Positions 42,335 to 62,969 of a stretch of DNA of 64,000 nucleotides are shown in pieces. The DNA lies in the NCBI GenBank assembly GCA_000004985.1, contig GG738847.1. One strand, written 5' to 3'. The position numbers and the translations under genes were made by a program. Position 1 is the first letter of the stretch; every line of letters begins with the position of its first letter. The DNA comes from Naegleria gruberi (taxonomy: Eukaryota). Below the pieces are notes generated by a model, which did no database searches, was not told the DNA's origin, and was given only the letters and a program-made list of their open reading frames with translations.

Positions 42335-43294
42335 ATGCAACTGTTATCTTCAGAAGTTCTCATCACAGTTTTTGATTTTCTGCTCGATATTTCCAATAAT
42401 TGCATAAATATTTATGATTGTGAAATTAGAAAAGTAATTTTTTCACTTCAATCAGTCAACTCTCAATTCAAGCAATTTTATGATGAAAATTATTGGTGGG
42501 AAGTATTGAAAACTCATCTATTGATGAGTCACTCTGTATTGTCAATGTCCGAGAAGGAGATTGTCATGAATATGAAAGAGAAATTGAAACAAAATCCATC
42601 TTTCCAATCATTTCGAAGATGTACTTTATTATTCGAAATGATGAGACGAAAGGGATTTGGTTTAAAAATGAATGATATGAATAATGAAAATGTATTATTT
42701 AATAAGATATTAATTATTGGAATGAAGGGTGTTGGAAAAACCAAATGCATATTAAATTACGTCTATTCTAATGCTTTCCCATATAATCACGAAATTGCAA
42801 TTGAGGATAGCTATAGGAAAATGTCACATTACATTGAAAAGTTTCCAGTGATTGTAGAATTATTCGAGTTAATTGAAATCAATCCAATTAGTGATTACAA
42901 TTTGAAATACGTTAACGAGTCTAACATTGTTATTGTAATGTGTGAATTATATTCTGAAGAATCAGTTCAGTATTTGGAGAGTACTTTATTTCCAGCTATG
43001 GAGGATAAAATAGCAAACCTTCCAACTTTAATTGTAATTAATGATAAGCTCAATAAGGAAAATCATACAAAAAAACGAATTAAGAAACAAAATATCAAAT
43101 CAATTCTAGAAAAGTTTAAAATTCATAATTATTCATTCATAGATATAAGTACAAGTAATTATTCAACGATTGTAAATTTATTTTCTCATTGTACTACTAT
43201 TTTTGCTTTTACATTCCAACAAAATATTGAACTTGTAGAAGTAATTTTAAAAAAGGATAAGAAATTACTCTCCAAAAATTGTGTAATCAATTAA
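42335..43294 (+). CDS. F-box-like N-terminus fused to a Ras-superfamily GTPase-like domain with degenerate catalytic motifs
   Basis: N-terminus LLSSEVLITVFDFL (F-box-like). P-loop ILIIGMKGVGKTKCIL. No DTAGQE: the G3 position reads VELFELIE. G4 is weak (INDKLNK). Confidence 0.6.
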   Translation: MQLLSSEVLITVFDFLLDISNNCINIYDCEIRKVIFSLQSVNSQFKQFYDENYWWEVLKTHLLMSHSVLSMSEKEIVMNMKEKLKQNPSFQSFRRCTLLFEMMRRKGFGLKMNDMNNENVLFNKILIIGMKGVGKTKCILNYVYSNAFPYNHEIAIEDSYRKMSHYIEKFPVIVELFELIEINPISDYNLKYVNESNIVIVMCELYSEESVQYLESTLFPAMEDKIANLPTLIVINDKLNKENHTKKRIKKQNIKSILEKFKIHNYSFIDISTSNYSTIVNLFSHCTTIFAFTFQQNIELVEVILKKDKKLLSKNCVIN

Positions 43295-44295: not shown

Positions 44296-47200
44296 TTATT
44301 GTTGATCTTGTTGCATGGATGGTGGTTGATAGACTTCATCTTGTTGCAATAACAATTCGTCGTCTTCATCTGATTCACTTTCTTCACCATCTTCGAGAAC
44401 TTGAATTTCACTTTCTTGTTGGAAGACATAGTCACCAGGCTTCTTTCTTTCACTCTTCAATTTCTTCAACTTTCTCTTACCCTTTCTAATGTAAACTCTA
44501 GTGAGAGTCTTGATTCTTTCGACAGCTTGTGGATCTCTCATAACCAAACCAACGAATGATAATACCAAGAAAATGATAGTGATAGCAATCAAGATAATTG
44601 GTGAAATATAGTAGGCCTTATAGGAGAAACCATAATTTTCCAAAGCAGTAGCAACATTTTGATTACTTTCTTGATACTTTCTAATTTCAACAGTGTACAT
44701 TAATTCGACAGCCCATCTCACTGGAGAAGAACAAACCAAAACCAATGTATACCATTCCTTAGACATGGTACGAACTGTTGGTTGAACACCACCCAACAAG
44801 GCACACAAAATAATGTACATTACACCAACAAATTCAGCATGAGTTCTTTGAACGAAAACTGAAATGAAATAGCCAAGAGAACTGAAAACAATTTCGAATA
44901 ATAAGAAGAGTCCATAGTATGTGTAAAATTCAGCTTCAGGATTAACGAGGATATACCAGAAAGTAACAAAGACCAATGGATAGATCAACAAGGAAGGAAT
45001 TTCACCAGTCAATTTACCAAGGAAGTAACTCATCTTGTTGATACCATTCTGAGCTTCACGTCTATAGAGTTCCTTATCAGCACCAAAACATTTGAGTGAA
45101 GATTGCATAGCAGCAATGGCAAGAGCAGAAACTGTAACAATACTCATTGGTGCAATCTTATCAATTCTTGGCAATGAACATTGATTACTAATAAATGTTG
45201 GACACAACTTTTGAAGAGTTGATGAAAGAGGACCAATAAAGTCCATGTTAAAGTAGAAACCTCCAATAATTACAGCAAGAGCAAAGTGGAAGAAGAAATC
45301 AAAGAAGACACCCTTGTAGTGACGACTCAATTGAAGCAAAGCACGAAGAGAGAATAAGAGATATTGACCCAAGAACGCAATTGGCTTTCTTTGTCTTTCC
45401 TTAGCAACTTCACTGCCCAACAAAACTTGTTGTGGATCAATAACAGAAGCACCAACTTCTTCATCATCTTCTTGTTCTTGTTCTGATTGTTGAGTTTCAT
45501 TACCATTTCTTGATTTGAGCCATTTCTTTTCATTTTCTTCCTTCTTCAAGTCCCACAAGTGCAACAAACGTTCTGGTTCAAAGTTTGGATCACCAGGTCT
45601 TTCAACATTACCCAAACAAACATCAACAAAAAAGTCTGGAGGATTTTCATAGTTTGGACATTTGAAGCCAATTTCTTCAAAGAATCTCAAAGCATCCTTG
45701 GTTGGACCATTGTAAACAATGCCACCATTCTTACCCATGATAATACAATCGTCAAAGAGGAGGAATACATCATTTCTTGGTCTGAGCATGGTAGAAACAA
45801 CTGTAGTACCACTTTCAGCAGCCAACTTGAAGGCCTTACACAAGAATTTCTTTCTTTCGAGTGGAATTTCATCGAATGGATTATCGACAAATAAACAAAC
45901 TGGATCAGCAACCATTTCAAGAGCCATGTTAACAAAGACTCTGAGTTCTTCATCGAGACCGTGCTTCTTTGATTTACCAATTGTATCATACATAAAGTTT
46001 TCAATACCCAAAACCTTACATGTCTTTTCAACACGTCTACCAACTTGACTGTATGTATAATAACTTGGCAAACGAGAGTGACCAGCAAATCTCAACAATT
46101 CGTGAACCTTCAATTCCTTAGCCATATCAAGTTGCTTTGGGGCAAAGCTGATAATATTTCTGAATTCGTGCGGATCCTTAATTTGTTCATTAATCATAAT
46201 TTTACCATGAACGAAACCCAAGTGATGTCTACCAGAAAGAGTATTGAGCAATGCAGAAGTTGCTTCAGAATCAACACCAATAATACATGTAGTTCTTCCG
46301 TGATAGACACGACCAGTGACACCTTCGAAAATAACTTCTTCACTCTTCTTTCTGATATATGACAAATCCTCAAAGGCATAATCAATTGTAAAGTTCTTCT
46401 TTGAGAATGGTGGTTCATTGACGAGAGAACCAGTACTATCATAATTGAATTGTTCATTTCCTTGAATAAAGTTGGCAATATTAATACCAATGTTGGCAAG
46501 ACCATTTTGTCCTGAGATTTCTTGGTCTTGTTTAATCTTCTTTTGCTTCATCTTCTTCTTCTTGTAAGAGGCAGTGACACATCTGACAACAACGAAAGTG
46601 ACCAAAACGAGGAAGACAACAACGAACATTAACAAGATACCCAAATAGAAGGATTGTTGCTTGGCAGAACCTTCTGGACAATAGGAGAACCATTGACAAC
46701 GTTTAGGATAAGTAGAGCCAGCAGCACAGTGATAACCAGATGGACACAACAACATTGAGTTGGTATTAGGGCAATAATAACCAGCAGTACAAGCAAGTGG
46801 TTCCTTAGTACCTCTTGGGCAATAATAACCATCTTCACACAAGACTTTGCTTGACAAGGTTGGACAATAGTAACCTTCTGGACAATAGTGCTCATCACTA
46901 CCATAAGTACCAGTTGGACAGTATTGAGTTCTGTTACCAATTTGTTCCAAACATGGAGTTGGAGTCATAGAGTATGGAGTTTCACAATAGTTCAATGCAG
47001 GACAAGCATTTACGAGAGTAGTGCCTGTAGTGTCAAGTCCTTGAGTAGCTAATGGACAATATTGACCATTTCTACAAGTGTATAATTGACTTCTAGTTTT
47101 TCTTGCAAGATAACCTGGTGGTACTGGAATAGACATCAAAGGGTTCAAACAAATTTGACCATCAGGACATCTTTGCTCAGTAGAGGAACCTTCAATTCCA

Positions 47201-49403
47201 CAAGTTGTTTCAAATGTTGAGGAAGGTGAACAAGCAGTAGGTGCAGTCATGGCCGAATCTTTACATTTGAATCCAACAGGACAAGGTCTTCTACGACCTT
47301 CGTTATTGGTTGGACAGTAAAATCCTGGTTCACATTTAAAGACCATTGTTGGTCTAATTGTGTGATAACCAGCAGAAATAGAAACAGTATTGGCGTAACC
47401 TTCAGCAAGAGTTTTCCAGAATCACCATATCTTGGACAAGTCCAACCTCCATTACACATTGAGAAGTAACCAATAAAATCGAATGCAGTATACTTGGTTG
47501 GATATTTCTTACAAGCTTCAGTAAATTTAGTCAATGAAGATGGAGGATTTGAAGAAGCCAACAAGGTGCAAATATCTTGCAATCTTATTCTGGCATCAAT
47601 ATCAAAGGCCTTTCTAGAAAGGACAGCAAAGATGTGTTGTGCATTTTCAGAAACATAAATGTCATTAATTTTACCATCACTGTTCAATAATGCAGTTTGT
47701 TGCAATGTAAATAAGCTTGAACTAGAAGTGGAAGCAGAAGTGTCAGTACAAGCATACTCTTGGAAGGAAAATACTTCAATACTTTCTCTTGTGGCAATGT
47801 TGATGGTGTGATAAAATGTTGAATAGGCATCAGTGATAGCAGTGTCACTTGTTTTGTACATTCCAATAACCATCTTTGAAGGAACAGCTGATGTGGTTTT
47901 CAAATCTGATTCCTTATTAGGTCTGTTAGTACAGGTTCCACTCTTTGAGTATTGAGGTTTGGTAGTTGATGTATAAGAAGTTGAGCATGTTGTGTCAGCT
48001 GGTATACCAACGGCCTTGTATATGCCAGCTGGGTCAGAACTAATATCAGTTACATCCTGACTTGCCATTTCTGGAAGGTTAAAGACAAATAATCTTGGGC
48101 CGAAAGCATTTGCAGAGGCTGTAGTTGAAGCAACACCAACAGCAACCCAAACAGATTGGGAAGTCTTAGCAAGAGTACCATAACATTCAGTAAATGCACT
48201 CACAGAATAAATACTTTCACCAGAGACACCATGTGTATAAATGATTGAGGTCTTCTTTGTTAAGTCAACAGGTGAGTCATTTGGCGTACCAACGAGTTGA
48301 ATCAAATTGACTTGTGACTTGGATTGAATTAAAAGAAGAGGTCTACTGGCTTTAACTGAATTACAGTCAACCTTTGATGAATATGTTGGGTCAGCACCAA
48401 ATTGTCCATGAGCAAAACCGAAAATCTTTCTTTCCTCAGTTTGGTCAGCAAATGCCCATTTATAAAGTGTAGAACCCTTGTAAATGATAATACCATTGGT
48501 AGAAGTAGAAGTACCATATGAGAGAACAGCCATATGAGTTGCAGTTCCAAGAGTATCAATGTAGGCAATTGTTTGCAAATCTTGCACAAATTCGCTTGAG
48601 GACAATTTGGTTGTTGTATCAATGGTAAGAGCAATAGTTTTAGAAGATGAAACTGTGAGAGTACCAGTAGTATCCAATTTAAGAACCAATAATGTTTGAG
48701 TTGACAAGGTAACATAAATTGTTGCCTCAGTAGAGCTAGTTCTATAGACAGCCATCTTACTTGGTTTATCTGTTAAAGCAGTTTTAGCATCAAGTACTTG
48801 ATAAGAGTAGGCCAATTGTTCAGTAGTCATATCAAGAACAAGCAAATGTCTATTGGTCAATACTAGTAAATATTGTTTGGCACCATCAGCTGACATTTCC
48901 AAAGGTTTAGCAGCTCTAACAAAGAAACAACGATTGTTTTCGGATTGTGATGATTGATCAGTAGTGGTAACATTTCCTCCAGAATAGTCTTCCTTATAAA
49001 TTTTAACAATATTATCAACATCTTGATCTTTCACACAAATCATGTTATTTTCAGTTGATGTAATTGGTGTCTTGTCTGTTATTTTGGTATATAAACATTG
49101 TGCACCAGTGGCATCACAATTAAAAATGTCAGGATCTCTAAAAGTGATTGGTTGACTTGCTCTAAAGTTATTATATGTACACCATGATGGTCTTGAAGTG
49201 GATAAAGATGGATCACATAATCCAAAGGCTGATTTAACTTGTTCACCAGATAATGCAGCACACCAGTCTGGAGGTGTGGCAGCAAGAGTTGAAGCACAAC
49301 TCAAAGTAATCATCAACAAGATGGAGACGATTAAATATCGAACAGCAACACGTTGTTGTGCTTGTCCTTTCAACAATGGTCTATTATCATTACGTATCAT
49401 CAT
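44296..49403 (-). CDS. giant secreted/type I membrane protein: large extracellular domain plus Cys-rich GYYCP/EGF-like repeats plus a degenerate ABCG-type module, with an apparent 1-nt frameshift at 47412-47415
   Basis: ORF 47247..49403 has a signal peptide (..LLMITLSCASTLAATP) and a 700-aa Thr/Ser-rich ectodomain. ORF 44296..47346 continues in a different frame with CxxC/GYYCP repeats, a TM helix followed by KKKKMKQKK, an ABC NBD with degenerate Walker A (IIGVDSEATSALLNTLSGR), degenerate signature and Walker B (LFVDNPFDEIP), and a six-helix ABCG-type TMD. The two frames would fuse if the run GGAAAAC (minus strand) had one more A. Confidence 0.7.
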
Positions 49404-51543: not shown

Positions 51544-54500
51544 TTATTGCGTTACGTTTATTGGGCCAGATACTTCTGGTGTTACTTCCTCCTTTTCCTC
51601 AATAGGAGTGGAATGTGAAGATAAGAATCCGAGAGCTTGTAAAGATTGATTATTCACATCTTCTTGTTTCAATTTTTTCTTCGCAAACGAGCCTCTTACA
51701 GTTGGACCTTCAACACTCTTATTTGGTCCAATTCCATACAAGTTTTCCAAGTTATCATAATTTTCATGTTGATCTGCTTCAGATTCTTGACGAACTGAAT
51801 CTTCATTATGCTTGCTATTTGAAATTTTACCAACTTCAAGAGATGTGTCTGTCTTTTCATCTGCTCCTTCTTCAGAATGATGAGAATCAGTTTCATATTG
51901 TAAAGGATCAACGTGATGCTTCCTCTTGAGCAGATAAGTTTGACATAAACCTTTTCCTTTTACATCAATTTTACGTTCTTCAAATTCCATTCCCATGTCA
52001 TGAACTCTTTCATAGGTAGCTCTAGAAATTTGAATTCTGCCTGGTTCACCAGTTGACTCCATTCTTGAGGCTGTATTAATGGTATCTCCCCACAAATCGT
52101 AGGCAAACTTTTTGATACCAATCACACCAGCAACAACTGGTCCTGTATGTAGACCCACACTATGTAGTTTCAATTTAAGAAAATTTCTTAGTAATTACAT
52201 TATAAATTATATACTTACCGAATATTAACATTAGTATTCTCACTTGAATTATATTCCTTGATTACTTGAAGTGTATCAATGGCAAATCTCAATGATCTCT
52301 CAGGGTGATCTGATTGAGCATTCAAGTTGATACCACCAACACAAAAATAGGCATCTCCAATAGTTTTAATCTTTTCCAAATTATACTTTTCAGTGAGTAC
52401 ATCAAAACCATTTACAATTGCATTCAACATCAACACAAGCTCAGAAGGATTCATTCCAGAGCTGATTTTTGTAAATCCAACCATATCTGAGAAGAAAACT
52501 GTTACATCATTGAACTTTTCAGCAATGAATGTTTCACCTCCCTTCAATCTTGAAGCAACACTCTCTGGCATAATATTTAACAATAATTGTTCAGATTTTT
52601 TCTTTTCTTCAGCTAATAACATATTTTGTTTCTTTTCAGGTGTGAAATCTTTAACAAAGCAACTAATAATTGGTTTCTTATTGGCTACACTAACTGAAAG
52701 ATTAACCTTGGATGGAAATTTACTTCCATTCTTTCTGACACATTCCACTTCAAGTGTTTCACCAAATGACTGGGTTGCATTTACCATTTGCTGGATAATT
52801 TGTGCTAGTTTTTGTCTATTTGGGTCCATAGGGTCAAATAGCTTGGTCAATTGCTCGCCCAAAACATCACTATTATTCATACCATACATCTTTTGAGCAA
52901 CAGGATTGAAAAGTTCAATATCACCTTGTGAATTACATAAAATGGCTCCATCAACTGCAGAATTCAAAATTGCCCTCACCTTACCATCTCCACCACCATC
53001 TTTTTCCTTGCTTTTTTCTGATGAAGAGGCCCTAGATTTAGACGAGAGATCATTGAAAAGTACAAATTGTTTAAGAGCATCATTGGAATCAATATACTCC
53101 ACAGGTAAGTAATTGAGTAAACTTCTTAATTGTTGAATCTGATCCCAAAAATCTCTTATTAACACATATGCAAAATATGATAGTGATATTAATGCAATGT
53201 ATCCTATAACAACTGCAATTATGGATAATGTAAAACTTGGAGTCGATGCATATGTAGAATATAAATCAAAAATGTCTATTATTCTATCCATAAGGGCATT
53301 TGACATTTCACTTCCCTTAAGCAAGGTCAAGAATAAATTGTCTATAGCGTAATTACTGTAATATACATCTTCGTTCAATCTTAATGACACAGTACTAATT
53401 TCTGTAACGAGCTCATCCAAATTGGTGCAATAAAATGTGGAAACGTTGGTACAATTTGTAATTGGAGAAATAAGAATATCAATATCCTCATAAGTATTCA
53501 TAAATCTACCACCATATCTTAATACTTCCCATGAAGAAGCAATAGTTCCAAATAGTGATTTCATTTGAACGTGGTAAGTGCTAAGGTCTGATTGTGAGAG
53601 CAAACGATCATCATTCAAACTACTCTTGGAAGTATATCTCATAAAACTAAATAATTCTGTCATACGGTAGGCTGCTCTGTTTGTATTTCTGAAAATTTCA
53701 ACTCCAGAAGTAACGTATTTAATCGCTAAACTTTCAGTATTAGAAATAATTTGCATATCAACGAAAAGCATTGTAATGCAAAGAACAGTTACAATGATAC
53801 TTGACACAACAACGAGTGAAATGGTTGTCTGAGGTTTTGAAATAATTCCATTCTCTTTGATATCCATTTCTTCATCAGACTTCTTGTCGAGACCTTGAAA
53901 TATTTTACCAACTTGATCCTTGGGTAAGGTTGTGGCAATAAACTTAATAGATGATCTCAATGACCTCAAATGTACTAACAATATCATAACCACAATTGCT
54001 GCACAAACACCATATACAACAACTGCAGCTACGTAGAAGGCAATAAATTGAATGTTCATATTTTGAACAGATTCAGAATTTCTACGCAAAAATAAATCAC
54101 AATAAGCATCAAAAGCTGAGCTACCTCCATTTCTATTTGTCCATAAAAACATGAAATCACCAGATGTTATTGTAGTATTAAAGCTATTTGCTTCCTTCTT
54201 CAAATAAGTCTTGGCATATTTGATTAAACTATCAGTAATTTCTGAAATGGAAGCATTTTTGGATTGAATGTAATCGGAAGGAATTGTTGAATCATTACTG
54301 TAATAGAGAACTGGTGTAACAAGAGTATATATAGGATTGGTATAGTCTGCTATGGATTCAGAAGACATTGTACCAGAGGCCTCAGCCAATTTTAACTCAT
54401 CCAAAAGTCCCTTATACTTTTCCATTCTCTCTAATTTGTCTTGGAAAAAGTCTGTAACATTAACCACATCATGTAAACCAGAGGATATAAGTTCATTCTT

Positions 54501-56953
54501 ATAGGTTGGATAGAGTATCATAAAGTTTTGGAATACTCTAATTTCCCTCAAAAGCAATCTAGGTACAGCAGATGGCATGCAAACATAGTAGGAATTCTTA
54601 ATGTTGCTAGAGAGCTGACCAGCAAAGGAAACTGACATACCAATACCAATAGATACAATACACATTGAAAGAAAAGATAGAATCAGGAAAAAGAATAAAT
54701 AAATATTGTGTGTGTGTTGTCTGTTAAGAGAAACTCTAAACTGGTATTCCTTCTTTTGGTTGCCTACAATATTTTCAATGCCACTGAATTCATCAATTCT
54801 ATCTTCGTAGGAATGACTAATGCCACTTCTTGCTCCAGATGTTTTTTGTACATCAACGCTTGCTTGATTAGTAAATCCTTCACCAAAGTAATTACTTTCT
54901 GGCAGTACTCTATTATTTTTTCCAATCTTTTTTGGAACTGAGGTCTTTTTTGTTTCTTCTTCTTCAATATAGTTGGCTTCTTCATACATTTCATATGCTT
55001 GATCTCTTTCAAATTTGACTTCTTCTAAGAATTTTGCATATGTTCTCAATACAGTCTTATTGTTACCATAGTTTGACATGAGGCCCTTAAGAGTAATTCC
55101 AACTTCCCTTGTGATGGAAGTAATTTGTTTGTTGATACTTTCTACCTTCTCGAACGAAATATTATCATTAATAAATTCTTTAAAGAAGGACTTGTGGAGT
55201 GAGGAAATAATTTGTTGTTTCTTTTCAACTTTTTGTAAAATATGTTTAATTTCTAGCAATCCTTTGCCACTGTCAAGAATTGTCTCAATTTCTTTAGTTC
55301 TCTCTACAATAGTAAATCTTTGTAACAGAGAGGGTTGATTTTTCTTTGCCTGAATAAATTTGTTAGATAAATGAAAATACTTTAAATACGTACTTTTTCT
55401 AAAATTGCAAGTGATTTTTGTTGTCCTGTTTCAAAAAAGTTACCACAAATAATGGAGGCTGCAATTAATAAATCAACATTTTGGTAAGTTTTTTGATTGG
55501 CAACACCCTTAATAAAACATTTGGAAAGTTCCAAATCACTGAGATTACCCAAAGTAGAGGTAGATCCTTTCTTCATACACCATTTTAAGAAGAGGAATAG
55601 TCTTCTTGAGCGATTGGTTTCTTCAATTTCTTGTAAGATTTTGATAGACTCCTTTTCTAGAATGTATTTAGGATTCATAATGTCATCATTACTCAAATTG
55701 TCTAATCCACGTTCCAAGTGATTCATAAATATTCCTCTCAGATCCTTATTAATGTATCTAGTCCATAAATCCATGCACAACCAACCAATGAAGGAAAATA
55801 TTATCATTACACCAATAGTCATGCCTAACAGTCCTAAACCAAGACCATACTCATTTTGAGTATTCACATATGTGGAAACAACACCACACAAAGAACCTCC
55901 AAGAGTGGCACAAACAAAACCAAAGTAAACAGCATTCTCCCATCTTCTATAAAAAGGCATTGAAAATAAAAAGAAAATAGTGATGCAAAAGCTAGCTACC
56001 ACAAAGTAAACTGCTTGAATTACCACAAATTGATCTCCTACAACATTAATCAACAAATAGTAAATTTGATAGCTTAGAACGCTTAAAAAATAGAGATGAG
56101 CATCAAATGTTAAGAAGGGAGTTTCACTCCTTGGATTTGCATCTGTTGTTGTGTAAAAACCAACAAAGGTTGTGAAAATTGTGAGCACATATGACAAAAG
56201 ACCAATTATAATGAAAGCCAAATTGGTGCCCGAATAACAGGCCACGTCAGGAAATCTATTCAAAACTTGTTCAGCTGTTGTTGAAGAAGTGACCAGCACT
56301 GCTGACGAATAATTACAATTCAAAAACCCCAACATGAGCCAACTGATTGGCAAACTTGTTAAAGAGATTGTTACATTCAATATTCTAGTAATGACTTTGA
56401 TTTTGGGCCAATACTTGCTCATTCTGTAGATAGATCTGTAGGCAATTATTAAAATAATGACTTGAAGTAGCTGTATGGCAAATATAATACCTGCAATAAT
56501 GACCGCTGCAGTGTAAGGTAAATGTTCAAAACCAAATGTTAGAGGATAATTAACAGCTCTTGCTATCCACCTTCCATACTCGCCAAAGTTATAACTAGGT
56601 TGAATGGCAATCACTAATGTTGCCCATATGAAATATAGTCTGATGAGTAGAGTTTTGATATATTCATTTCTTCCAACTAATTCTTGTCTGGTTTGTAAAT
56701 TAAGAAGGAACATGAAGGATCTCTCCTCTAACTGAGTAACAATAGACTCATTATAGTAATCTTCCAGTGATGATGTGGTACTACCCACTTGTGAAGCATT
56801 CACAACACTACCTGCTGCATTGGCATCATTAGGTTGTCTTGTTGAAGTAATATAACTTCGCTTATCTATTGAGGCAACATTGGTAGAAAAGTTATAATCT
56901 AGCACACTTCCGGATTCACCATCTGAACCAATAATACTTCCTCTCCTACTCAT
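51544..56953 (-). CDS. membrane adenylyl/guanylyl cyclase with N-terminal polytopic domain, second TM cluster, PAS domain and one class III cyclase catalytic domain; three exons (55394..56953, 52219..55349, 51544..52159)
   Basis: Exon 1 (MSRRGSIIG.., at least 8 TM helices) ends ..ILEK|GTACGT. A 44-nt intron (55350..55393, branch ATCTAAC, ..TTCAG) continues in frame into AKKNQPSLLQRF..LLEIKHIL... Exon 2 has TM helices, PAS (..GAILCNSQGDIELFNP..) and the cyclase core (..FSDMVGFT..KIKTIGDAYFCVGG..). It ends NIR|GTAAGT, and a 59-nt intron (52160..52218, TACTAAG..CATAG) joins ..VGLHTGPVVAGVIG..DLWGDTINTASRMES. All phases checked. Confidence 0.8.
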
Positions 56954-59013: not shown

Positions 59014-62000
59014 TTAAAGTTCAGAATCATCATCACCAATCTTTTTCCTCACTGTTGACTTCTTTAACGAGACACCACCACCAAGAATGTTTGTACCAGC
59101 TTTTGGATCGTCCTTCTTGGCAGTTGATGCTGTGAGACGACTTGTTGTACTTGCATTTTTGAGATCTTGTTTAAGTTTTTCCTTCTTAAGCTTTTCTTCT
59201 TCTGCCTTCTTTTTCTTTTCGTCGGCCTTTTGTTGTTGAATATTCTTGTCGGCAGCTTGTTTAAATTGTTGAACAAAGGCATCAATCATTTGGAAGAATT
59301 TGTCTGGTTCTTTCATAAGATCGTCCTTAGTTTCATTGTACAATTCTGCGAGCTCTGTTAATTGATTCTTCATAGCTTCCATATCTTCCTTGATCTTGTT
59401 AATGGTATTGTCAACCTTCTCACAGAATGGTTGCATTTTTTCAACAAATTTGTCTCCATCAAGTTGTTCTTCAATGGCTTCTCTAATTTGAGTTTGTAAA
59501 ATGTTTTGTCCTTTTTTAAGTTCTTCCAAATCATCTTCCAAAGAGGAAATGTTCACTCTGGTGGCAGCTTGAACGTGTTCTAATTCTGTATCAAAACCAG
59601 CAACTTCTGGTTCGTTGTCTTGGACAAACTTGACAATATATTGGAGGAGAGAACTCTTACCGTCACCAGTCTTAGTATCATTCAACTTGGCAAGTGATTT
59701 GAGTTTAAAACCATAACTGATCTTATTCTTTTGTTTACCATTCAAAAAGTTACCAATTGTAAGAATAATACCCAACAATCTGATGAAATTCTTAGAGTTT
59801 TGCATTTCTTTACAGGCTAATGTAAGATTTTGAATATCAGGTCTAATTTTACCACTGATATCAGGGAATTTAAATTTAAATTCCCACGCATCAAGTCTTC
59901 CTTTGAGATTTGGAATTCCATCCATGACTTTGAAGAATTTATCAGGTTCTGCTAATTCATCCATTGGTCCATCATATGTATTGACAGTATCAATTTCTTC
60001 TCTCTCAGGAGCAATTTGCTTAATTGTACCAACATTATCAGAAGTAACAACAGCTTCATCGAGAGCAATAATAGCTTTCTTCAATGATTCATAACTTGTA
60101 CCTCTCAATGAACCTAATTGAAGGGAAACAGCATAACTACGTTTTGCATCCAACATTGATTTAACTTCCTTCTTCTTTTCTGTTGGCTTAACTTCTTTGT
60201 TTGGATCTTCCTTTTTCTTTGTAGAGAAACATGATGTCAAATGATCCAAATCTATTTCCTCAATAATGGAATTTGTCTTATTTGCAATACCTTTTGTCAT
60301 AAATACGGTATTGGTAAGTGTTGTCTTATTAATTTGGTCAAAGTGAACATTTCTGGTTGCTTCTTTTGGAGCTCTATCTGGAAGAACAGGTAATCCACCA
60401 CCAACAGCAGCACCTCTTCCAAAACCTCCTGGAACCATTGGTACACCTCTTCCAAAACCTGGTGGCATAGGAACACCCATACCAGGTGGCATTGGTACAC
60501 CTCCCATTCCTGGAGGCATTGGAACACCACCACCAGGAGGAGGAGGCACACCACCCATACCAGGAGGAGGAGGCACGCCTCCCATACCAGGTGGAGGATT
60601 GGAACACCTCCCATTCCTGGAGGCATTGGAATACCTGATCCTAAAGGAGGAGGAACACCGCCCATACCAGGTGGAGGAGGAACACCAAAACCTGGAGGAG
60701 GAGGAATACCACTATCCATTCCTGGAGGCATTGGAATACCTGATCCTGGAGGTGGTGGAATACCACCAAAACCTGGAGGAGGAGGAACAAATCCCATATC
60801 ACCACCAGGTGGAGGAGGAACAAATCCTGAGCCACCAGGAGGTGGAGGAACAAATCCAGTAGATCCAGGAGGTGGAGGCACGCCAAAATCACCACCAGGA
60901 GGTGGAGGCACAAATCCTGAGCTACCAGGTGGAAGTGGTACTGAACCACCAGGTGGAGGAGGAACGAATCCTGTCGAACCAGGTGGAGGAGGAACAGATC
61001 CAGTACTAGCTACTGTGCTAGTTGGAGGTACCTTAATAGGATTACTTTTGATAGATGAAATTTCTTTTTCGATGGCCGCAATAGTCTCCTTTAGCTTGGT
61101 TTCGTTTTCTTGATGCTTTTTGAGATCTGCTTGTAACTTTTCAATCTTTGATTTTCCTTCCTTTTCAACCTTTTCGGTTTCGTCTGTCACCTCCTTAACT
61201 TGATTTTTAACATCATCGTCTTGATCGCTTGAGTCTAATTTCTTTGTCCAAGTTTCCTTTTCCTCATGGAGCTTAATTTTTGATGCCACAGATTCAGAAA
61301 GTTCCTTACTGATTGTCTCTATTTCAACCTTCAGGTCTTCAATCTTCTTCTTGTTATCTTCACATTCTTTTTGAATATTTTGTTTCTCCGATTCGAGTTT
61401 TTGAACAAGTTCATTAATAATTTGCTCATTTTGTTGTCTTTCGTACTCAATTTTGTGTAACTTTTCATTCTGTTCTTGTTTAAATTTGTATTGAGAGTCT
61501 TCTAAATCAATAATTTGACTTTGGTTCAATCTGACTTGTTCTTCCAACTTGATTTCCAAATTAGTCCAATATTCTACATTTCCTGTTTCTCTGGACTGCT
61601 TTAAACTTCTCTTAACAAGTGCTAACATATTTTTCCAAGCTTCAAGAACGGTTTCTCTGTCCAAATCTCCATCTTTCATCTTTAAAACAATGTTAAGTAA
61701 TCTTTGAAGGATGTTAAGCATACTGGTCATGGATGCTTCGTTTAACATCAAGTTCAAAAGTTTTACAATTTCAGTTGGGTCACTTAAATCTTTAAGGACA
61801 GCGTGAGCATCTCCAAGATCACTGATTTTGTCTTCGAATCTTTCAATTTCTTTACTCAGATCCATTAATGTTTCTTCATTTTCATTACCTCCATAAGAAT
61901 TGGCAAGTTCATTCTTCAATTCATCTACTAACTCAACCATACCTAAATTTCTCATTTCCTTCTTGATGAGAGATTTACTACCTTCATCAGGTGCATTTGT

Positions 62001-62969
62001 CAAAATTGCATTCACTAAAATCATGACAGCCAATTTGTAATCCAAATCTCTTGTTTCTTGAACTCTTTGAACAATATCAAAGAATCTTCTCTTTTCTCTT
62101 TTAACCAATTTATAGTGATTAAAAGCATTCATAACAAGGGAGAAACCTTGATATGACCATCCACAAAGTAATGCTAATATTCTCAGACATTGACTTGCTG
62201 TGTTAACATTGTAAGTATCAAGAATTAAAGCCAAATTTTTAACAGCTTCAGTTTCGGATAAAAATTCATCTGCACCGATATTGGTATGTACAAGTGCACG
62301 TAAAGAGCTCACACACAAAGCTTGTTTTTGCAATTCTTCTTGATCACGTTTCTTTCCCAATACATTTGTCAATGCTAAACATTCTCCCAAAGCTCTAATA
62401 CCTCTTTCCATAATAAATTGGTTGACCCAACGTGTTGGAGCTGTTCTAATAAGAACATGAATAGTTTCCAAAATTTGTAAATCATAACCTCTTTGTTCCC
62501 ATAAGGCTAACATTTCACCAACACCTTGTTCAGTTGTTTCTTGGTCATCAATATCACGTTTGTTTTGTTTATATCTTTTCAATTCTCTAAATTTTGAAAT
62601 GAGTGGCTTGTTAGCAGATTCGTACTCTCTAACTTCTTCCGAAACACCAATATCAATCAACATTTCAATAAATTGTTCATTGATATCATCAGGAGAAATA
62701 TTGGAAGGAATTTCAGAGTGATGATCTAATGTTGAATCACCAGAATGATCCGTAAATGTACTAGCTGCTGTTGTATAACTTGTTGAGTCATCACCAAGAG
62801 TTGCCGTGTTGATACTCTGTTCTACTCTCTTCTTGTATTCATCCTTCTTCTTCTTTCTGTCCTTTTTGATTTTTTTTTTCAATTGATCTTTTACAGTTTT
62901 GGCGGTTTGATTGTTTTGATTTTCAATACTGTTTGTATCCACAGAAGAACCTATTAGTTTCTTTAACAT
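59014..62969 (-). CDS. diaphanous-type formin (GBD/FH3 - coiled coil - FH1 - FH2 - basic DAD-like tail) with a frame discontinuity inside the FH1 repeats near 60590-60600
   Basis: ORF 60297..62969 has GBD/FH3 armadillo, a long coiled coil, FH1 (..GFVPPPPGG.. and GIPMPPGMGGVP..) and ends in frame-garbled sequence. ORF 59014..60585 begins MGGVPPPPGMGG.. and carries a complete FH2 (..LLGIILTIGNFLNGK..) plus a Lys-rich C-terminus. The two ORFs overlap in different frames. Confidence 0.8.
60390..61010. repeat. tandem DNA repeats encoding FH1 poly-proline units (second formin)
   Basis: Same ccaggtggaggaggaacacc...cataccagg unit family as at 2880..3560. The antisense Gly/Glu-rich track ORFs (60599..60862, 60641..60949) are artefacts. 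Confidence 0.8.

Follow-up and report, generated by a model that had tools for sequence, protein, structure and literature searches.

The window analyzed here is a stretch of 64,000 nucleotides (nt) from contig GG738847.1 of Naegleria gruberi (assembly GCA_000004985.1). The gene under study lies on its minus strand, where positions 44296-49403 hold two long open reading frames (ORFs), 47247-49403 with 718 amino acids (aa) and 44296-47346 with 1016 aa, which are in different frames and overlap by 100 nt. Joining the frames at 47412 gives a conceptual product of 1,702 aa followed by a stop codon. The encoded protein appears to combine a large ectodomain and a Cys-rich stalk with a membrane-anchored module of the ABCG family of ATP-binding cassette (ABC) transporters, in which a nucleotide-binding domain (NBD) precedes the transmembrane domain (TMD). 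The ATP site of this NBD has been lost in a clade of related proteins.

To judge from its sequence, the segment of residues 1011-1265 is a true ABCG NBD. In a phmmer search against the PDB it matched NBD2 of Pdr5 (3e-32), ABCG8 (5e-29), and ABCG2 (8e-29), and also the plant proteins ABCG25 and ABCG16. The Pfam profile ABC_tran gave no match even at E ≤ 10 with either the query or its metagenomic ortholog P0001; ATPase-intact relatives match this profile at 1e-23 to 1e-27. For the comparison of the motifs, the protein was aligned with ABCG8, with Pdr5, and with 67 relatives that have an intact ATPase site. GPSGAGK[TS], the Walker A motif of these relatives, is replaced by GVDSEATS, the signature ISGGQRKR by LDEELRVF, the Walker B LFLDE by LFVDN with Asn in the place of the catalytic Glu, the D-loop TSGLD by FDEIP, and the H-loop IHQP by MLRP, so that the His is lost. 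A preliminary description of this DNA had reported that the Walker A Lys, the LSGGQ signature, and the Walker B Asp-Glu pair were all replaced. The alignments bear out the first two, and of the third only the Glu is gone: the Asp is retained in the query (LFVD-N), the corresponding residue being Glu in most clade members. The same description had called the module a catalytically dead pseudo-ABC module, and the additional loss of the Q-loop, D-loop, and H-loop, together with the missing ABC_tran match, agrees with this. The ABC module thus reads as a catalytically dead pseudo-NBD, for which a canonical ABC ATPase cycle would be impossible; since the ATP-site motifs are replaced, the protein could not be an ATP-driven pump.

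The losses are concentrated in particular columns, as revealed by a column-by-column comparison of the 67 ATPase-intact relatives with nine members of the dead clade. Among the intact relatives, 84 columns of the NBD-TMD are conserved to at least 85%. The dead clade has lost 22 of these (kept in at most two of the nine members), namely, those of Walker A, the Q-loop, the signature, the Walker B Glu, the D-loop, and the H-loop, plus three adjoining columns (1040, 1205, and 1226). Forty-six columns are kept in at least seven of the nine members. They include G1058, G1067, N1072, R1111, E1163, P1168, P1209, F1214, G1233, NPxD (1254-1257), and W1284 in the NBD and R1354, R1449, G1454, Y1460, G1539, S1560, and E1567 in the TMD. 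This pattern is what a selective removal of the nucleotide chemistry would leave, with the fold and the NBD-TMD coupling evidently retained.

The same motif losses were found in P0003-P0009, P0027, and P0032, down to 36% identity; the clade marked by these losses comprises at least 10 sequences. In a neighbor-joining tree of the NBD-TMD, calculated without bootstrap, the query, P0001, and P0003-P0009, which are the nine sequences with a full-length module, form one clade. Ratios of nonsynonymous to synonymous substitution (dN/dS) were calculated by the Nei-Gojobori method for the query and P0001; with a dS of ~0.9-1.6, which is near saturation, the values are rough. They decrease along the protein, from 0.32 in the ectodomain (44% identity) and 0.23 in the Cys-rich stalk (66%) to 0.135 in the pseudo-NBD (83%) and 0.10 in the TMD (86%). 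Furthermore, 52 columns distributed over the NBD, the linker, the TMD, and the tail are conserved in at least eight of the nine dead-clade members but in less than 25% of the intact relatives, and thus point to new constraints. The pseudo-NBD therefore appears to be under purifying selection and not to be decaying, as was expected in the preliminary description if orthologs kept the degenerate motifs. A deep-branching member of the dead clade, the metagenomic P0008 (1,584 aa), scores 34.5 bits on ABC_tran and has neither the Walker A Lys nor the signature nor the catalytic Glu; it may correspond to an intermediate step in the degeneration.

The reading as a single protein requires a repair of the frame. 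Followed upstream, the second ORF stays open as far as a TGA at 47424-47422, and the homology to the orthologs restarts at ANTVSIS in the other frame. The shift within 47392-47421 corresponds to the loss of one base or the gain of two, and one added base, e.g., GGAAAAAC, would restore an intact ORF of 1,702 aa. The ortholog sequence ...CPRFGDSGDMITNSITTNAPVVSISPGNHVIRPT... is represented in the window by ...CPRYGDSGK in one frame and by TLAEGYANTVSISAGYHTIRPT in the other; the ortholog DNA is continuous through the junction in a single frame. Three orthologs are single ORFs: P0001 (1,735 aa; locus L001, 7867-13074) is 64% identical over 97% of the fusion, P0003 of Naegleria lovaniensis (XP_044554665; 1,721 aa) is 82% identical from the TM anchor to the C terminus, and P0004 of Willaertia magna (KAL9645155; 1,785 aa) is 57% identical. 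P0003 and P0004 came from an exhaustive HMMER scan; a separate homolog search returned only two matches with the fusion and three with the NBD-TMD as the query and did not retrieve some close orthologs. An exact search of metagenomes with a 29-mer beside the frameshift gave no match. The length of roughly 1,700 aa given in the preliminary description is thus matched by the fusion, with the proviso that the ORFs are out of frame and that one extra base in 47392-47421 is needed. Its placement of the ectodomain and the ABC part in one gene agrees with the single-ORF orthologs of 1,721-1,785 aa, which cover 97% of the fusion.

An intron joining the ORFs was also considered. All frame-restoring GT..AG pairs were enumerated, and none resembles a real intron of this genome; GTAAGT is absent from the whole target gene, no AT-rich intron was found at the junction, and the homology leaves room for only ~9 codons. 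Elsewhere in the window, the gene of a TPR/PAS-domain adenylate/guanylate cyclase (51544-55259, minus strand) has a genuine AT-rich intron of 58 nt at ~52174-52231, with the elements GTAAGT...TACTAAG...TAG.

Two readings of the locus other than a single functional gene were weighed. The first would have two genes, one for a secreted propeller protein and the other for an N-terminally anchored ABCG-like protein. Two ORFs are indeed present, and the second starts with an ATG at 47346, but both parts are fused in all orthologs, the homology crosses the junction in two frames and leaves no space for a promoter or signal, and a product of the second ORF alone would lack a signal peptide and begin partway through the Cys-rich extracellular domain; we give this reading next to no credence. 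It is only slightly less improbable that the gene is a decaying pseudogene, with a real frameshift and NBD motifs that are mutational debris. The sequence of the window is in fact frameshifted at 47392-47421, and an exact lookup of the second ORF found no identical product on record, nor did one of a neighboring ORF. However, identical motif losses occur in intact single-ORF orthologs down to 36% identity, and this clade-wide conservation shows that the motifs did not originate by decay. The dN/dS is 0.10-0.32 across all domains, including the 1,038 codons past the frameshift, which are free of stops and show low values. In addition, there is a second 1-nt coding frameshift within the same 64 kb: the formin gene at 59014-62969 (minus strand) appears as one ORF for GBD/FH3 (60297-62969) and another, out of frame with it, for FH2 (59014-60585), with the break near 60590-60610, and a unit of its Pro-rich FH1 repeats has lost 1 nt, with GGTGTTCCAAT-CCTCC in place of GGTGTTCCAATGCCTCC. 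Two coding frameshifts in 64 kb suggest assembly indels rather than two pseudogenes. The frameshift at 47392-47421 is hence most likely an assembly indel, given that the orthologs read through, that there is no intron signal, and that the formin gene carries a similar defect. Both the two-gene reading and pseudogene decay are essentially excluded, and 44296-49403 can be treated as one gene. Its features, with coordinates checked by translation, are compiled in Table 1.

Table 1. Features of the gene at 44296-49403 and of its predicted product, from the N terminus to the C terminus
Feature	Residues	Position in window	Strand	Basis or remark
Whole gene		44296..49403	-	ORFs, fusion, single-ORF orthologs P0001/P0003/P0004; one frameshift in assembly
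Putative signal peptide: basic n-region and hydrophobic core LIVSILLMITLSCASTLAA	1-42	49278..49403	-	Hydropathy only
Cys-containing N-terminal ectodomain segment, low-confidence structure	43-161	48921..49277	-	AF2 pLDDT, alignment
Predicted seven-bladed beta-propeller, Ser/Thr-rich	~162-597	47613..48920	-	Predicted structure
Helical Cys-containing connector (ICxxL...FxxxCxxKxPT...)	599-643	47475..47609	-	AF2 helices; invariant alignment columns
Frameshift zone, including the run GGAAAAC		47392..47421	-	Downstream frame closed by TGA; homology switches frame
Cys-rich stalk, C-x-x-G-[YF]-[YF]-C-P repeats	665-915	46660..47412	-	Motif counts, AF2, Foldseek, profiles
Single TM anchor FYLGILLMFVVVFLVLVTFVVVRCV	919-943	46576..46650	-	Hydropathy peak 3.29; same place in relatives
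Polybasic stop-transfer patch KKKKMKQKK	948-956	46537..46563	-	Conserved in clade
Pseudo-NBD, ABCG NBD fold	1011-1265	45610..46374	-	phmmer against PDB; motif tables
Walker A remnant IIGVDSEATS (relatives [IV]MGPSGAGK[TS])		46255..46284	-	Alignment
Q-loop remnant FAPKQLD		46126..46146	-	Column comparison; Lys in conserved Gln column 1090
Signature remnant GLDEEL (relatives GISGGQ)		45943..45960	-	Alignment
Walker B and D-loop remnant CLFVDNPFDEIP (relatives vLFLDEPTSGLD)		45862..45897	-	Asp retained, catalytic Glu replaced by Asn
H-loop remnant TMLRPR (relatives vIHQPR)		45775..45792	-	Alignment
NPPDFF (ABCG-type NPxDF motif, retained)	1254-1259	45628..45645	-	Columns 1254-1257 kept in 9/9 clade members
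ABCG-type membrane domain, six hydrophobic helices	1346-1625	44530..45369	-	Pfam, hydropathy
Clade-specific cytosolic tail, 77 aa	1626-1702	44299..44529	-	Comparison with relatives
Tail basic patch RVYIRKGKRKLKKLKSERKK		44440-44499	-	Translation
Tail acidic cluster and Leu-Leu-Leu EESESDEDDELLL		44347-44385	-	Fits the [DE]xxxL[LI] sorting-signal pattern
Tail YQPP		44320-44331	-	Translation

At the N terminus, a hydrophobic, signal-like segment at residues 24-42 has a hydropathy peak of 2.25 and an equivalent in P0001 and P0003; the signal peptide of the preliminary description is therefore to be read as an assignment by hydropathy. The following segment contains Cys residues that are partly conserved in the ortholog alignment, and in the AlphaFold2 (AF2) model the predicted local distance difference test score (pLDDT) is below 50 for model residues 1-117, which make up this N-terminal part of the ectodomain. 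The central part is predicted to fold into seven four-stranded blades arranged around a central axis. The identity of this propeller to its structural matches is ~10%, no WD40 sequence repeats were detected, and neither WD40 nor any other Pfam family was matched in the ectodomain. The 620-aa ectodomain contains 12.9% Thr and 11.9% Ser, in line with its earlier description as large and Ser/Thr rich. Its best-conserved segment is the helical connector, which, like the last propeller blades, is also matched in ATPase-intact relatives.

The stalk contains 24 Cys residues (9.6% over 250 aa), with one GFYCP, three GYYCP, and one GYHCA unit. It is modeled by AF2 with a pLDDT of 84.6 as a rod of disulfide-bonded beta-hairpins. 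A Foldseek search with the stalk returned the Cys-rich repeats of the Chlamydomonas mastigoneme as the best match (E value of 2e-7), followed by Elapor1 and the TNFR family, and proteins matched in a profile search carry Pfam PF07699 (ephrin-receptor-like) and PF00020 (TNFR). These structural and profile matches make the earlier label of EGF/TNFR-like a fair one. A Pfam scan of the stalk itself gave no match, EGF included, and the term "EGF-type" is therefore valid only at the level of the fold and the repeat class. A search for Naegleria paralogs with the Cys-rich profile returned only generic Cys-rich proteins. The stalk is followed by a strong TM helix and the patch KKKKMKQKK, the stop-transfer arrangement that had been recognized in the preliminary description. 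The positive-inside rule would place the N-terminal 918 residues on the extracellular or luminal side and the NBD and the tail in the cytosol.

The membrane domain lies C terminal to the NBD and was identified by Pfam as ABC2_membrane_7 (3.5e-34) and ABC2_membrane (2.2e-16), so that the Pfam scan proposed for the fusion recovered the membrane part of an ABCG and not ABC_tran. An NBD placed before a six-helix ABC2-type domain in one polypeptide is the reverse topology of the ABCG family; of the other hallmarks of an ABCG half-transporter, the NPxDF motif is present and the canonical ATP motifs are absent. ATPase-intact relatives stop ~10 residues past the sixth TM helix, and the tail is restricted to the dead clade, in which a basic patch RxYxRKxKxKLKK is followed by an acidic stretch. 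A near-terminal YQPP is present in the query, P0001, P0003, P0004, P0005, and P0007.

Clear links exist between this protein and a set of ABCGs with a working ATP site. Its nearest ATPase-intact matches contain a region with 7-10% Cys and YCP units, then one TM helix located 60-120 residues before the NBD. The Cys-rich domain of the query matches the domain preceding the TM helix in these relatives with E values down to 1e-45, and a homologous Cys-rich domain with a TM anchor recurs in dozens of ATPase-intact relatives of the ABCG family, spread over many lineages of eukaryotes. The intact relatives that carry an organism name include proteins of Anaeramoeba, Rigifila, Diphylleia, Spirogloea, Tetraselmis, Cymbomonas, the chytrids Irineochytrium and Dinochytrium, and Racocetra. 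A profile built from the ectodomains of the dead clade matches long intact members over the C-terminal half of this region, among them an Anaeramoeba protein named "abc transporter g family member 28" and a Rigifila protein, and it matches P0152 over nearly the whole ectodomain. Plant ABCG24/28 proteins are long half-size ABCGs of an Adp1-like layout, and Arabidopsis ABCG28 reportedly has a physiological role in pollen tubes. Fungal Adp1 is an ABCG with an N-terminal domain of EGF repeats (PMC2848647, PMC6647914), the topology of the Adp1 group has been described as TMH1-NBD-TMH6 (PMC6647914), and the maize proteins named ABCG24/28 are long half-size ABCGs of ~1,100 aa (PMC9409143). The Naegleria protein likewise has a single TM helix (919-943) between its soluble N-terminal domain and the NBD, and N-terminal Cys-rich repeats that are of EGF type with respect to fold and repeat class. 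The suggestion that this architecture had not been described thus has to be withdrawn, since fungal Adp1, known for decades, has the same plan (PMC2848647, PMC6647914) and dozens of intact relatives share it. We infer that the gene is a member of the Adp1/ABCG24/28-type branch of ABCGs.

The best explanation of these data, to which a probability of about 0.6 may be assigned, is that this member of the Adp1/ABCG24/28-type branch lost its ATP site within a monophyletic sub-branch and is now an ATP-independent, dimeric membrane protein. A transporter has probably taken on a function independent of ATP: in that one sub-branch the residues contacting ATP and Mg were replaced, strong purifying selection preserved the fold of the NBD, its NPxDF contact motif, the residues that couple NBD and TMD, and the membrane domain, and a new cytosolic tail was gained. 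The beta-propeller and the Cys-rich stalk may capture a ligand or cargo on the extracellular or luminal side, the ABCG membrane domain and the pseudo-NBD would form a scaffold for dimerization and coupling, and the tail, with its basic patch, acidic-cluster/di-leucine element, and YQPP, might recruit sorting or signaling partners. A receptor or sorting scaffold is our best guess for the function, held with modest confidence; the receptor or adhesion scaffold of the preliminary description would be plausible. A wider and clearly more tentative proposal is that an old, possibly heterolobosean-specific ABCG clade abandoned ATP entirely and was reused as type I membrane or sorting receptors, in which the head of propeller and Cys-rich repeats would detect a ligand and the conserved pseudo-NBD/TMD dimer would pass the signal to the newly gained tail.

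Several points weigh against the explanation favored here. Ligand binding, dimerization, and the function of the tail are all deductions from the features of the protein. Conservation is highest in the membrane domain (86% identity), which would fit a passive translocation role too. The monophyly of the clade comes from a neighbor-joining tree without support values, and the link to Adp1/ABCG24/28 from the architecture, the database names, and the fungal and streptophyte matches. Finally, the frameshift could be real in the source strain.

Two other functions were weighed against that of an ATP-independent receptor or sorting scaffold. The protein might be a noncatalytic subunit that heterodimerizes with an ATPase-competent ABCG half-transporter and tunes or targets the pump, as ABCG8 does for ABCG5. 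ABCG half-transporters work as dimers, asymmetric pairs exist (ABCG5/G8 and the matched Pdr5 structures), the NPxDF motif of NBD-NBD contact and the coupling residues are retained, and Naegleria has ATPase-intact ABCGs, such as XP_044567071 of N. fowleri (P0146/P0166). However, the degeneracy of the known asymmetric ABC dimers affects only a single composite site, with one half losing Walker A/B and the other the signature, whereas the present NBD is degenerate on both of its faces (Walker A/B and H-loop on one, signature and D-loop on the other), so that degeneracy is not limited to one composite site. Given the established head-to-tail geometry of the dimer, no canonical composite site could then form with any partner, which weakens this proposal, and no ABC gene is found nearby in the window or in L001. 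We regard a subunit role as rather unlikely. Doubtful as well is a role as a facilitator, in which the protein would work without ATP, for example, as a channel or as a scramblase of lipids or sterols, and would use the ABCG membrane cavity with the ectodomain as donor or acceptor. The TMD is the most constrained domain (dN/dS of 0.10), with many columns conserved in a clade-specific manner, but no precedent for passive transport by an ABCG fold is known to us, no clue to a substrate was found, and the clade-specific tail and the large head suggest protein interactions as much as transport. XP_044567071 itself has 1,110 aa, an N-terminal extension of ~400 aa, and an intact Walker A, signature, and Walker B, and it lacks the Cys-rich domain; it might be a partner of the dead protein or serve for comparison.

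No functional link emerged from the neighboring genes, either those of the window or those of L001. Directly downstream of the gene, a 319-aa ORF at 42335-43294 (plus strand) encodes a C-terminal Ras-family GTPase domain (Pfam E value of 4.6e-8) behind a 120-aa N-terminal region. In databases, clade members are named "hypothetical protein" or "ABC-type multidrug transport system ATPase subunit," and the latter annotation is almost certainly wrong for the dead clade. Literature searches on Naegleria ABCGs and on fully degenerate ABC transporters returned nothing specific on the clade.

ABC transporters are defined by their ATP engine, and the cases known to us as degenerate (ABCG5/G8, Pdr5, CFTR, and TAP) always keep one working site. 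If the wider, more tentative proposal of a reused receptor clade is true, this would be, to our knowledge, the first ABC exporter fold maintained by selection without any functional nucleotide site, a counterpart of the pseudokinase receptors. The dead clade is a natural experiment on what an ABCG scaffold can do without nucleotide. The Adp1/ABCG24/28 branch, for which we know of no function in fungi, is widespread in eukaryotes, and its large shared ectodomain has hardly been discussed. The interest of these findings lies mainly with specialists in ABC transporters and pseudoenzymes.

Comparison with known systems places the protein among four groups. With the Cys-rich repeat proteins (PF07699 and PF00020; Mst1 and Elapor1) it would share a stalk that is predicted to be a rod of disulfide-bonded beta-hairpin repeats, but here these repeats are fused to an ABCG module. 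ABCG5/ABCG8 and Pdr5/Cdr1 have the same NBD and TMD folds, being the best PDB sequence matches, and provide a precedent for the evolutionary retention of noncatalytic ATP-site residues; one of their composite sites is fully canonical and drives transport, whereas none can form here. The plant ABCG24/28 type consists of half-size ABCGs whose NBD is preceded by an N-terminal extension. Pfam PF19055 matches both this type and the Naegleria protein, the closest named intact relative is annotated as "abc transporter g family member 28" (Anaeramoeba), and a protein of the streptophyte alga Spirogloea (1,126 aa) is among the matches. In contrast to the Naegleria protein, the plant type has intact ATP motifs (P0099), a shorter ectodomain, and no clade-specific tail. 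Fungal Adp1p (Saccharomyces cerevisiae YCR011C) has one NBD, preceded by a single TM helix and followed by six, and a large soluble, N-terminal, Cys-rich domain of EGF repeats where a first NBD would sit, and chytrid and glomeromycete proteins of the same layout are among the relatives identified here. These fungal relatives keep Walker A, the signature, Walker B, and the H-loop and match ABC_tran, whereas the Naegleria protein adds a predicted seven-bladed propeller head and the 77-aa C-terminal tail. The Adp1/ABCG24/28-type layout is thus already known, and what is new is an ATPase-dead clade with an added tail.

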